Shown: positions 12,556-15,869 of the stretch, piece by piece
How the letters are laid out: the number at the start of each line of letters is the position of its first letter
How positions within the stretch are numbered: the stretch's first letter is position 1
The notes under the pieces: generated by a model
Database searches by the model: none
What the model was told of the DNA's origin: nothing
Seen by the model: only the letters and a program-made list of their open reading frames with translations
Source of the DNA: a virus
Lineage: Duplodnaviria > Heunggongvirae > Uroviricota > Caudoviricetes
DNA length: 15,900 nucleotides
Virus record (IMG/VR): IMGVR_UViG_2695420863_000009
Reading direction: 5' to 3' (one strand)
Position numbers and translations under genes: made by a program

Positions 12556-13032
12556 GGTGAGGTAGAGTGCGTGCGCCGGACACGGATAAGAATCCGGCAC
12601 TGACAGTTTACTGAAAAGGATATATCCCTGAAAAGTCAGGGCATAACACGAAAGCGCCCGGCGAAGTTAGTCTCTCTGTATAGGTCGTCGTTAAATTTAA
12701 TTCGATCGTGCGCTTCCGGTTGTGGCAATCCGCGAAATGGCGCGGCGGTAAGTATGGCGGGGTTATTCCTTCCCCGTTGAGGACACCGGGTTGTCAGGTT
12801 GACCATACGCTTAAGTGACAACCCCGCTGCAACGCCCTCTGTTATCAATTTTCTGGTGACGTTTGGCGGTATCAGTTTTACTCCGTGACTGCTCTGCCGC
12901 CCTTTTTAAAGTGAATTTTGTGATGCGGTGAATGCGGCTGAGCGCACGCGGAACAGTTAAAACCAAAAACAGTGTTATGGGGGGATTCTCTGTATCCGGC
13001 GTTAATTGTTAACTGGTTAACGTCACCTGGAG
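12556..13032 (+). repeat. repeat copy 1: structured leader + dicF + dicB 5'-UTR segment
   Basis: About 90% identical to 14489-15019 and identical to 15575-15869 over the shared part. Ends at an N-run. Confidence 0.8.
12850..12902 (+). ncRNA. dicF: DicF-like sRNA, copy 1
   Basis: TTTCTGGTGACGTTTGGCGGTATCAGTTTTACTCCGTGACTGCTCTGCCGCCC followed by TTTTT; matches the 53-nt E. coli DicF as I recall it. Intrinsic terminator at the 3' end. Confidence 0.75.
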
Positions 13033-13045
13033 NNNNNNNNNNNGT
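13033..13045. other. assembly gap (13 N)
   Basis: Run of N directly after repeat copy 1. Confidence 0.95.
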
Positions 13046-13152
13046 CGGTTTTTTTGTGCCATAACTTCTGCAAATCAGCTGTATAACTAATATTTTTCCC
13101 TTGAAAAAACATTTACATAGTTACCAAAACAAAAATATCATACGCCATACTG

Positions 13153-13181
13153 TTGACTTAAAATATCCGCGTTACTAATAT
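13153..13181 (+). promoter_or_regulatory. putative strong sigma70 promoter
   Basis: TTGACT, 17-bp spacer, TAATAT, with an AT-rich upstream region, about 70 nt upstream of the ydfA-like ATG. No GTAAC-N4-GTTAC operator was seen nearby. Confidence 0.4.
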
Positions 13182-13252
13182 TTCTATCAAGAACAGCACG
13201 GCGCTGTAGGTTTTAGTTCCGCCACCCGGCGTTAAGGGGAAATGAGGTCAGC

Positions 13253-13408
13253 ATGGATACTATCGAGCTTGGCAACAACGAATCTCTGGTGTACGGCGTG
13301 TTTCCCAACCAGGACGGCACATTCACCGCGATGACGTATACCAAAAGCAAAACGTTTAAAACCGAAAATGGTGCCCGTCGCTGGCTGGAAAGAAACTCAG
13401 GTGAGTGA
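13253..13408 (+). CDS. ydfA: YdfA-family small protein (DUF1391), copy 2
   Basis: 51 aa, MDTIELGNNESLVYGVFPNQDGTFTAMTYTKSKTFKTENGARRWLERNSGE; same SD as copy 1. Below the track cut-off. Confidence 0.75.
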   Translation: MDTIELGNNESLVYGVFPNQDGTFTAMTYTKSKTFKTENGARRWLERNSGE

Positions 13409-13409
13409 T

Positions 13410-13538
13410 ATGGATTTCGACACAATCATGGAAAAGGCTTACGAAGAATACTTCGATGGTCTTGCCGAAGGCGAAGAAGCTCTCAGCTTCAGTGAATTTA
13501 AACAGGCGCTTTCCAGTTCGGGAAAATCTAACGGCTGA
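13410..13538 (+). CDS. ydfB: YdfB-like small acidic protein
   Basis: 42 aa, MDFDTIMEKAYEEYFDGLAEGEEALSFSEFKQALSSSGKSNG; starts 1 nt after the ydfA stop. Matches my recollection of YdfB/YdaG. Confidence 0.6.
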   Translation: MDFDTIMEKAYEEYFDGLAEGEEALSFSEFKQALSSSGKSNG

Positions 13539-13567
13539 TAAGCGAAACAGCACCGCGAGGAATCAGT

Positions 13568-13786
13568 ATGCAGAAACGAGAACCCGTCATCATCGCGCCA
13601 GACTATACCGATGATGAACTTTATGAGTGGATGCGCCAGAAAATTAATGCAGTGCAGGATCTGAAATGGGCCAATGAAGCCAGGACTAAGCAGGCTGAAA
13701 ATCTGTCCGCTCTGGAGCAGGATATCACCAGGCTGGAAAAAGCAGCGGCATTAAGCATTGCCAGAATGGTTACATACCCACGTTAA
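13568..13786 (+). CDS. ydfC: YdfC-like protein
   Basis: 72 aa with SD aggaa; MQKREPVIIAPDYTDDELYEWMRQKINAVQDLKWANEAR… matches my recollection of YdfC. Confidence 0.65.
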   Translation: MQKREPVIIAPDYTDDELYEWMRQKINAVQDLKWANEARTKQAENLSALEQDITRLEKAAALSIARMVTYPR

Positions 13787-13808
13787 TAGCTAACCAACGA
13801 GGCTAATA

Positions 13809-14210
13809 ATGGAATTTAAAGATTTACCAATGCCATTCCAGGAAATGGCAGCGAATGTGATTCGCTCTCAACTGGCGACTCTTGACCTGAGTACTGTAGA
13901 AAAGGAAACCATCGATACTATATCCGGTAACGTGCGTCGTGCCTTTATAGGTCTGTATGAAGAGAAGCGCCTATTCGGCGGACAGAATTCGCCTGAAAAC
14001 AAGAATCAAGCAAATGATGAGAAGCTGAAACACATTATCGCCTTACTTTTGGAAGACGCAAAACGTCTACAGCAACTGGAACCAAATGCAGGCACAGAGG
14101 CCCGCATTTGGATTGCCATGAAATCACTCAAATGTGAAAGCAGTGATTATTTCAAAACAACAATTAAAACTACTCAACTTTCGGGAGAGCTACTGAAGAA
14201 ATTGCCATAA
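13809..14210 (+). CDS. hypothetical protein, variant B (same N-terminal 52 aa as the 12171 gene, different C-terminus)
   Basis: 133 aa. The N-terminal 52 aa are nearly identical to variant A (3 substitutions); the C-terminal 80 aa are unrelated. The 3' end overlaps the convergent minus-strand gene by about 40 nt. Confidence 0.5.
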   Translation: MEFKDLPMPFQEMAANVIRSQLATLDLSTVEKETIDTISGNVRRAFIGLYEEKRLFGGQNSPENKNQANDEKLKHIIALLLEDAKRLQQLEPNAGTEARIWIAMKSLKCESSDYFKTTIKTTQLSGELLKKLP

Positions 14211-14448
14211 GAGCATGGTCTTTCTCTTGTTCTGCAAGATGAGCATTAATACCTGGTATGGTTTTTTCAAATTTATCTATCTGTTGAATAACAACTTCGC
14301 GGTATACGTTTGTTTTTGTACCACCAAGCGCAGCCGTTAATGCAGAAAGCATATTTAGTATCATATCAGTGCGATATGAAAGAATCCTGATAGCTTCATC
14401 TTGTTCTTCAATAATAGATTGCAGGGCCTCAATTTGCTTTTTATCCAT
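14170..14448 (-). CDS. hypothetical protein, convergent with variant B
   Basis: 92 aa from the ATG at 14448 with strong SD aggagg. The sequence looks helical/coiled-coil (MDKKQIEALQSIIEEQDEAIRIL…). It is the only minus-strand gene inside the plus-strand operon. Confidence 0.45.
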   Translation of the reverse strand: MDKKQIEALQSIIEEQDEAIRILSYRTDMILNMLSALTAALGGTKTNVYREVVIQQIDKFEKTIPGINAHLAEQEKDHALMAISSVALPKVE

Positions 14449-14488
14449 TTCACCCTCCTGAGGGTTGGTAATTAAGGAGTTCTCCACT

Positions 14489-15019
14489 GGTCAGGTGGAG
14501 TGCGTGCGCCGGACACGGGTGAGCATCCGGCACTGACAGTTTACTGAAAGGATATGTCCCTGAAAAGTCAGGGCATAACGCGAAAGCGCACGGCGAAATT
14601 GGTCTCTCTGTACGGTGTCGTTAAATTTAGTTCGACCGTGCGCTTCCGGTTGTGGCACTCCGCGAAATGGCGCGGCGGTAAGTATGGCTGGGGTTTCCTC
14701 CATTGCTCCAGAAAATGCACCGGGTTGTCAGGTTGACCATACGCTTAAGTGACAACCCCGCTACAACGCCCTCTGTTATCAATTTTCTGGTGACATTTGG
14801 CGGTATCAGTTTTACTCCGTGACTGCTCTGCCGCCCTTTTTAAAGTGAATTTTGTGATGCGGTGAATGCGGCTATGCGCACGCGGAACAGTTAAAGCAGT
14901 AAGGCGGTATTTTACGGGCGTAACGAGCATCAACTAACCCGGCGTTAATTGTTAACTGGTTAACGTCACCTGGAGGCACCAGGCACTGCATCACAAAATT
15001 CATTGTTGAGGACGCGATA
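14489..15019 (+). repeat. repeat copy 2: structured leader + dicF + dicB 5'-UTR
   Basis: Aligns with copy 1 across its length with scattered substitutions and a small insertion. Confidence 0.8.
14784..14836 (+). ncRNA. dicF: DicF-like sRNA, copy 2 (G-to-A variant)
   Basis: Same 53 nt as copy 1 except A at position 12 (GTGACATTTGG vs GTGACGTTTGG); followed by TTTTT. Confidence 0.75.
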
Positions 15020-15208
15020 ATGGAAACGTTATTACCAAACGTTAATACGTCTGAAGGTTGTTTTGAAATTGGTGTCACTATCAGTAACCCTGTATTTACT
15101 GAAGATGCCATTAACAAGAGAAAACACGAACGGGAGTTATTAAATAAAATATGCATTCTTTCAATGCTGGCCCGTTTACGTCCGATACAAAAAGGATGTG
15201 CACAATGA
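15020..15208 (+). CDS. dicB: cell-division inhibitor DicB
   Basis: 62 aa, METLLPNVNTSEGCFEIGVTISNPVFTEDAINKRKHERELLNKICILSMLARLRPIQKGCAQ; near-identical to my recollection of K-12 DicB. Lies downstream of dicF as in Qin. Confidence 0.8.
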   Translation: METLLPNVNTSEGCFEIGVTISNPVFTEDAINKRKHERELLNKICILSMLARLRPIQKGCAQ

Positions 15209-15396
15209 ATACAGCATTTGCACTTGTTCTGACAGTTTTTCTTGTTTCCGGAGAGCCAGTTGATATTGCAGTCAGTGTTCACAGGACAATGCAGGAGTGT
15301 GTGACTGCAGCAACCGAACAGAAAATTCCCGGTAACTGTTACCCGGTCGATAAAGTTATTCACCAGGATAATAACGAAATCCCGGCAGGTCTTTAA
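15205..15396 (+). CDS. ydfD: YdfD-like small membrane/lysis protein
   Basis: 63 aa, MNTAFALVLTVFLVSGEPVDIAVSVHRTMQECVTAATEQKIPGNCYPVDKVIHQDNNEIPAGL; ATGA overlap with the dicB stop. Confidence 0.7.
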   Translation: MNTAFALVLTVFLVSGEPVDIAVSVHRTMQECVTAATEQKIPGNCYPVDKVIHQDNNEIPAGL

Positions 15397-15488
15397 AACA
15401 GTTCCGTAATAAATATCCGGTTTCATTCTTATATGCCAGCAATGGCAGGGATTTGTTCACCCTTAAATCTGTAATGAGGTAAAACAAA

Positions 15489-15550
15489 ATGAGTAAAGTC
15501 TTTATTTGCGCCGCCATTCCGGACGAACAGGCAATAAAGGAAGAAGGTGC
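15489..15550 (+). CDS. 5' fragment of an ORF truncated by the assembly gap
   Basis: ATG with SD gagg; MSKVFICAAIPDEQAIKEEGA… runs into the N-run. Confidence 0.3.
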
Positions 15551-15574
15551 NNNNNNNNNNNNNNNNNNNNNNNN
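15551..15574. other. assembly gap (24 N)
   Basis: Run of N; the sequence resumes inside the leader repeat. Confidence 0.95.
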
Positions 15575-15869
15575 GACACCGGGTTGTCAGGTTGACCATA
15601 CGCTTAAGTGACAACCCCGCTGCAACGCCCTCTGTTATCAATTTTCTGGTGACGTTTGGCGGTATCAGTTTTACTCCGTGACTGCTCTGCCGCCCTTTTT
15701 AAAGTGAATTTTGTGATGCGGTGAATGCGGCTGAGCGCACGCGGAACAGTTAAAACCAAAAACAGTGTTATGGGGGGATTCTCTGTATCCGGCGTTAATT
15801 GTTAACTGGTTAACGTCACCTGGAGGCACCAGGCACCGCATCACAAAATTCATTGTTGAGGACGCGATA
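15575..15869 (+). repeat. repeat copy 3 (partial leader + dicF + dicB 5'-UTR)
   Basis: Identical to copy 1 over the shared region 12785-13032, then continues into a dicB start. Confidence 0.8.
15643..15695 (+). ncRNA. dicF: DicF-like sRNA, copy 3
   Basis: Identical to copy 1; followed by TTTTT. Confidence 0.75.

Follow-up and report, generated by a model that had tools for sequence, protein, structure and literature searches.

The window analysed here, a 15,900-nucleotide (nt) stretch of viral DNA (Caudoviricetes; IMG/VR record IMGVR_UViG_2695420863_000009), is written with three copies of the dicF gene, and raises the question of whether a single prophage arm can carry a triplicated gene for this small RNA (sRNA). 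DicF is processed from the polycistronic dicBF transcript and base-pairs via its 3′ part to repress ftsZ and pykA, and via its 5′ end to repress xylR (PMC5069750). An initial annotation of the window had placed all three copies in one prophage arm, with a corresponding implication for DicF dosage. The evidence presented below argues for a different interpretation, namely that the window is very probably a mis-scaffolded draft and not a triplication, in which two dicBF loci from two lambdoid prophages have been combined, one of them written twice.

The identity of the three elements is not in question. Each dicF is 53 nt long, lies on the + strand (starts at 12850, 14784, and 15643), and is directly followed by TTTTT, which agrees with the initial annotation. 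The Rfam DicF model (RF00039) matches all three over its full length (1–52/52), with 76.7, 77.0, and 76.7 bits for copies 1, 2, and 3, respectively; since these values are far above the gathering score of 48, with E ~1e-15, the matches are not due to chance. Compared with dicF of E. coli MG1655 (b1574), copies 1 and 3 are identical at 53/53 positions, and copy 2 at 52/53, the sole change being a G to A substitution at 14795 that corresponds to nucleotide 12 of DicF (G12A). The earlier claims that copies 1 and 3 are the same, and that copy 2 differs by one G-to-A change, are thereby borne out, and the statement that K-12 has a single dicF is correct. In the predicted minimum free energy fold, nt 1–15 are unpaired and nt 16–52 form a hairpin, at −15.9 kcal/mol in both alleles; the terminator hairpin and T-run are common to all window copies and K-12 dicF. 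The dicBF operon setting is also recognizable. Around copy 2, Pfam identifies DicB (4e-38) and DUF1482/YdfD downstream, and DUF1391/YdfA upstream, and for copy 3, dicB begins downstream at 15870, in agreement with the annotation of the closed genome of E. coli ML35 (NZ_CP025747.1), which serves as our reference. Judged by model score, near-identity to K-12, fold, and the dicB and ydfD genes downstream, all three copies are members of the DicF sRNA family.

The arrangement of the copies is a different matter. The window consists of three pieces, A (1–13032), B (13044–15550), and C (15575–15900), split by exactly two runs of N (Table 1). The novel adjacencies, A–B and B–C, are made up of Ns only, and no determined base therefore supports either junction. 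A sequenced junction between repeat units, as a genuine intra-arm triplication would show, is present at neither position, both being N-runs. Furthermore, the end of A (12781–13032) and the start of C (15575–15826) are one and the same 252-bp block (69 + 183 bp about the dicF anchor, 0 mismatches). Copies 1 and 3 both lie within this block, each copy of which is bounded by an N-run, and no difference separates copy 1 from copy 3 across the 252 bp. Because A and C overlap in this manner, dicF copies 1 and 3 are best regarded as one gene written twice. The first gap also cuts a helix in the dicF–dicB spacer that joining A to C restores, since the 5′ arm is present in A and the 3′ arm only in C. 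The initial annotation described the identical copies as each abutting an N-run; their identity stands, but the contact does not, as the distance is 130 bp from copy 1 to the first run downstream, and 68 bp from the end of the second run to copy 3. The first run spans 13033–13043, and not 13033–13045 as previously given.

In the ML35 genome, the pieces are found at two separate sites, within prophage segments here denoted L002 and L003. Window positions 6735–13032 correspond to L002 1–6298 with 1 mismatch (6298 bp), and positions 15575–15900 to L002 6048–6373, also with 1 mismatch, at a site shared with that of piece A (12982/15775). The two blocks 12781–13032 and 15575–15826 accordingly fall on one ML35 place, L002 6048–6298, and as both pieces map to the same L002 stretch, A and C constitute one contiguous locus in ML35. 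Piece B, in contrast, corresponds to L003 5001–7507 with 1 mismatch (2507 bp; 99.96% identical). Prophage 1 adjoins potC and carries, in order, cro, a cI/LexA-like repressor gene, a DUF1391 (ydfA-like) gene, an open reading frame (ORF) of 124 amino acids (aa), dicF, dicB, ydfD, exonuclease, xis, and int. Prophage 2, which carries piece B, lies 192 kb from prophage 1, and has the order helix-turn-helix (HTH) repressor, ydfA, ydfB, ydfC, 133-aa ORF, antisense ORF, dicF (A12), dicB, DUF1482, exonuclease, xis, and int. For window positions 1–7428, the identity to ML35 is 99.96%. Taken as a whole (1–13032), piece A is 99.96–99.98% identical to the ML35 prophage at potC, with 4 mismatches in 13 kb. 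This near-identity indicates that the source strain carries essentially that prophage. The difference from ML35 common to A and C (12982/15775) does not serve as a marker tying C to A, since many genomes contain the 326-bp piece C at 100% identity.

The four piece ends inside the window all sit where short-read assemblies break. The end of A lies within a 48-bp exact repeat, and the end of B within a 157-bp exact repeat, both common to the two ML35 prophages, while C starts 2 nt upstream of a 45-bp exact inter-prophage repeat. Piece B opens precisely with the 3′ arm (13044–13055) of a terminator hairpin with a perfect 12-bp stem, AAAAAAACCGAC-GTCTTA-GTCGGTTTTTTT. In ML35 (L003 4983–5012), this hairpin follows the prophage-2 repressor gene, and it provides an example of a contig break at a palindrome. 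The flanking contexts differ as well. In ML35, the sequence at the end of A continues with the dicB leader (GCACCAGGCACC...), and the start of B lies directly downstream of the HTH repressor gene end and the 5′ terminator arm of that gene; A and B are therefore not adjacent in this genome. Piece B, for its part, runs on into the body of a 2.5-kb exonuclease gene, not into a dicF leader. As written, the dicB leader would run at the A–B junction into the middle of a terminator hairpin, and nucleotide 62 of the exonuclease gene would be followed at the B–C junction by sequence from the middle of the dicF leader. Neither junction is a point of homologous recombination.

Based on these observations, we propose that contigs A and C would together form one lambdoid prophage arm with cro, a cI-like repressor gene, a ydfA-like gene, the 124-aa ORF, dicF (G12), and dicB, and that contig B would be the dicBF arm of a second lambdoid prophage elsewhere in the chromosome, with ydfA, ydfB, ydfC, the 133-aa ORF, dicF (A12), dicB, ydfD, and the exonuclease start. 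Contig B may have been set between A and C because of the many exact repeats common to both prophages in this region. Each operon would encode DicF, the known Hfq-dependent sRNA that is released from a polycistronic prophage transcript, with a 3′ part expected to repress ftsZ, pykA, and manX, and a single-stranded 5′ part expected to repress xylR. By analogy, the source genome would be arranged as in ML35, and the copies would be expressed and processed as in K-12. The evidence supports the caveat that the initial annotation attached to its own proposal, according to which copies 1 and 3 could represent a single locus entered twice or a misjoin made in scaffolding.

Three points weigh against this interpretation. 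ML35, although a very close match to the source, is another strain, with ~5 mismatches over the window, and the true gene order in the source is consequently deduced rather than observed. Some scaffolder evidence did link A to B to C. Moreover, many other genomes contain all 326 bp of piece C at 100% identity, e.g., in O157:H7 prophages, so that the assignment of C to prophage 1 is not unique, and C could instead represent the collapsed segment of an additional prophage. The last point leads to an alternative in which the scaffold is an artefact, yet copies 1 and 3 are both real, with piece C derived from a third prophage, and with at least three dicF loci distributed over three prophages instead of one arm. 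Such an origin would fit the presence of piece C at full identity in many prophages of many strains, the three dicF-matching places in ML35 itself, and the fact that multi-copy genomes, with up to 7 places, are common. However, nothing in the window needs a third locus; the overlap between A and C is perfect and contiguous in ML35, and identical copies would be collapsed by short-read assemblers anyway. We therefore regard a third prophage as an unlikely source of piece C.

Considerably less probable is that the written order is real, i.e., that a nested or tandem rearrangement has placed three dicF genes within 2.9 kb of one arm, with a higher DicF dose from one operon. The scaffold has that order, lambdoid prophages recombine readily, and the two arms have many exact repeats in common, but both junctions are unsequenced, neither coincides with a site of homologous recombination, and ML35 has the pieces in separate prophages. 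A survey of 5,426 closed (complete) E. coli genomes points in the same direction, as 0/5,426 contain a collinear match to window positions 11000–15900 or any such structure. In the best places, 91% of this query is covered, and collapsed into ~3.3 kb, which implies that a single dicBF arm is matched by several parts of the query. When 150 bp on either side of the first gap were used as a query for the A–B junction (span 311), both halves were found near each other in only 7 closed genomes, in all seven with a span of 720–930 bp compared with 311 in the query. In the 2 of these genomes that were fetched, the halves occur in reverse order within Rac-like arms (repressor terminator, ydfA, and a dicF-downstream-like segment), and for that reason do not represent the junction in the window. 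Likewise, the gene for the 124-aa ORF is followed by dicB in 10/10 independent public contexts, six of which have a Rha/ASH gene in between, and by ydfA–ydfB–ydfC in 0/10; the exact 124-aa protein is listed in 8,784 blocks of the sequence collection. The number of dicF genes per arm is 0 or 1 in each of 12 prophage arms checked. The proposal of three copies in one prophage arm, and the dosage effect drawn from it, is thus unsupported: the order exists only across N-gaps, and is contradicted by ML35 and every other closed genome examined. The weakest alternative, that the N-runs are masks over low-quality or redacted bases in contiguous sequence with truly adjacent flanks, would account for their short, odd lengths (11 and 24) that are unlike fixed 100-N gap conventions, but is extremely improbable, since masking alone would predict agreement with ML35 at a distance of 12 nt or more upstream of 13044, where ML35 has ...CCACAACAAAAAAA (the repressor gene end) and the window has ...GTCACCTGGAG, the contexts of the second gap mismatch likewise, and gaps of estimated, odd length are routinely written by paired-end scaffolders.

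A mis-scaffolded pair of dicBF loci agrees with what is known from other strains. For O157:H7 Sakai and EDL933, multiple dicF/dicBF copies located in different prophages have been described (Balasubramanian et al. 2016, PMC5069750), and a review reports four dicF copies in many enterohaemorrhagic E. coli (EHEC) strains (PMC7873438). In our survey, dicF was found in 4,003/5,426 closed genomes at 6,850 places, with a median of 1 per dicF-bearing genome and a maximum of 7. The multi-copy state of dicF is already established and common in other strains, and since such copies in separate prophages have been published, the window adds nothing new on DicF copy number. Similar to the window, EHEC O157:H7 strains (Sakai, EDL933, and 86-24) carry several dicF genes, which are distributed over the dicBF regions of different lambdoid prophages (PMC5069750; PMC7873438), and the exact 86-mer around copy 2 as well as the exact 326-mer of piece C both occur in O157:H7 genomes. 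Unlike the published copies, which reside in different prophages, the three-in-one-arm order of the window is without parallel, and an artefact is its best explanation. The window also resembles short-read scaffold misjoins of poly-lysogenic E. coli, with piece ends at inter-prophage exact repeats and a palindromic hairpin, overlapping ends, and short gaps of estimated size.

Compared with the dicBF region of the K-12 Qin prophage, piece B has the same gene order, ydfA, ydfB, ydfC, dicF, dicB, and ydfD, but contains additional 133-aa and 92-aa ORFs between ydfC and dicF. Prophage 1 has the 124-aa ORF where Qin has ydfB and ydfC. The upstream repressor is cI/LexA-like in prophage 1, or a 153-aa HTH protein in prophage 2 (ML35), and not DicA as in Qin. 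The prophages of the window loci also appear more complete than Qin, with exonuclease, excisionase, and integrase genes downstream in ML35.

The two loci differ in the allele of dicF that they carry. At least 121 closed E. coli records, O157:H7 strains included, contain the exact copy-2 86-mer with A12, and the G-type 86-mer is found as an exact match in at least 3,044 closed records. In the Rfam DicF consensus, the position of nucleotide 12 is occupied by “a”. From its distribution among sequenced genomes, A12 can be regarded as a recurrent natural minority allele, and not a private mutation. Nucleotide 12 is located in the unpaired 5′ region, and the predicted DicF fold is the same with G or A. 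Using a simple duplex model and K-12 target sequences, positions +8 to +20 of xylR are predicted to pair with DicF nt 5–17 in an uninterrupted 13-bp duplex that places G12 opposite C+13. With G12, the predicted energy of this duplex is −20.3 kcal/mol; A12 introduces an internal A·C mismatch and gives −14.5 kcal/mol, corresponding to a free energy difference (ΔΔG) of ~+5.8 kcal/mol. The predicted manX duplex involves DicF nt 25–53 and has the same energy, −33.9 kcal/mol, for both alleles, and for ftsZ, the predicted pairing of the 3′ part is kept in both. The initial suggestion that the G-to-A change could alter targeting by the 5′ end is in line with these calculations as regards xylR, where it is the computed pairing that changes, and does not extend to manX, which is unchanged, or to ftsZ, with its 3′ pairing retained. 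In addition, pykA had been listed as a possible 5′-end target, which disagrees with the assignment of pykA and ftsZ to the DicF 3′ end (PMC5069750). Of the 5,408 closed genomes with a match to the xylR segment, 5,394 show at least 99% identity to it. Based on the recurrence of A12, the conservation of the xylR site, and the predicted ΔΔG, we tentatively raise the possibility that A12 is a functionally distinct isoform, for which repression of xylR may be weakened or abolished, with control of ftsZ and manX via the 3′ part left intact. A search of our literature library returned no paper addressing A12 as an isoform with changed targets.

Table 1. Positions of the dicF copies, scaffold joins, and associated genes and RNA elements in the 15,900-nt window.
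Feature	Position	Strand	Remarks
cI-like repressor gene, prophage 1	11018..11734	+	Pfam HTH_3 and Peptidase_S24; RefSeq LexA family protein in ML35
ydfA-like DUF1391 gene	12007-12159	+	Pfam DUF1391, 4e-28; upstream of dicF copy 1
124-aa ORF	12171-12545	+	No Pfam family; upstream of dicF copy 1
dicF leader, ~300 nt	12552..12849	+	Second copy at 14485-14783
252-bp end of piece A	12781..13032	+	Repeated as start of piece C, 0 mismatches
dicF copy 1 with T-run, G12 allele	12850..12907	+	Read as the real locus of prophage 1
dicF–dicB spacer helix, piece A	12911-12930		5′ arm only
N-run 1, 11 N	13033..13043		Unsequenced scaffold join, piece A (prophage 1) to piece B (prophage 2)
Piece B, dicBF arm of prophage 2	13044..15550	+	Matches RefSeq-annotated ML35 L003; Pfam DUF1391, DicB, DUF1482
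ydfA	13253-13408		Piece B
ydfB	13410-13538		Piece B
ydfC	13568-13786		Piece B
133-aa ORF	13809-14210	+	Piece B; no Pfam match
92-aa ORF	14170-14448	−	Piece B
dicF copy 2 with T-run, A12 allele	14784..14841	+	Read as the real locus of the second prophage
dicF–dicB spacer helix, copy 2	14845-14864 with 14984-15003		
dicB	15020-15208		Piece B
ydfD	15205-15396		Piece B
Exonuclease gene start	15489		Piece B
N-run 2, 24 N	15551..15574		Unsequenced scaffold join, piece B to piece C
dicF copy 3 with T-run	15643..15700	+	Most likely copy 1 rewritten, at the start of the contig continuing piece A
dicF–dicB spacer structure, copy 3	15704..15853	+	~20-bp helix, 15704-15723 with 15834-15853
dicB start, piece C	15870..15900	+	Runs off the window end; equals the first 31 nt of dicB at 15020; ML35 dicB at L002 6343

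The remaining features of the two arms are collected in Table 1. A Pfam scan of the window ORFs agrees with the ML35 annotation (HTH_3 and Peptidase_S24, DUF1391 twice, DicB, and DUF1482), and dicF copy 1 belongs to a leftward operon headed by the cI-like repressor gene. The 124-aa and 133-aa ORFs are 95% identical over their first 160 nt and then diverge completely, and the latter overlaps the 92-aa ORF on the opposite strand; these ORFs look like mosaic module boundaries. The leader in front of dicF is 88% identical between the two prophages and corresponds to the ydfC–dicF spacer of K-12 Qin. We infer that the leader belongs to the polycistronic precursor that is cleaved to release DicF. 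A scan for promoters and terminators yielded counts no higher than those of shuffled sequence.

Right after the DicF terminator, the spacer to dicB is predicted to assume a multibranch fold that is closed by a near-perfect helix of ~20 bp, formed by GUGAAUUUUGUGAUGCGGUG and CACCGCAUCACAAAAUUCAU, with fold z-scores of −4.6 (copy 3) and −2.9 (copy 2). The helix is retained in the copy-2 spacer via a G-C to G-U change, and the interior sequence differs. On these folding predictions, the structure is probably an RNase III processing element of the dicBF transcript. It also appears to be related to the STnc100 family, with Rfam matches in the spacer that are below threshold (39.4 and 31.1 bits compared with a gathering score of 47). 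A full-length match to the STnc100 sRNA (RF02076, 138 bits) is present elsewhere in the window, where it adjoins three prophage tRNA genes (270–460 and 537–786, both on the minus strand). ARAGORN assigns these tRNAs as Arg-tct, Arg-tcg, and a tRNA with a CAT anticodon, the last of which is a tRNA-Ile in the RefSeq annotation of ML35. This STnc100 element is located beyond the Q antiterminator gene, a position suggestive of a short transcript from a late promoter, of the PR′-tR′ type. The prophage also contains a hokD/sok type I toxin–antitoxin module (5362–5686, minus strand; sok RF01794, 117.5 bits), with an annotated hokD at the corresponding position of ML35.

The window illustrates that sRNA copy counts and dosage taken from scaffold-level assemblies of poly-lysogenic E. 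coli can err by one copy, and that such assemblies can invent gene orders. The small lead that remains concerns the A12 allele, and whether the recurrent G12A change uncouples regulation of xylR from the control of cell division. If A12 does act as a distinct isoform, poly-lysogens with both alleles would express two DicF species of differing target range.

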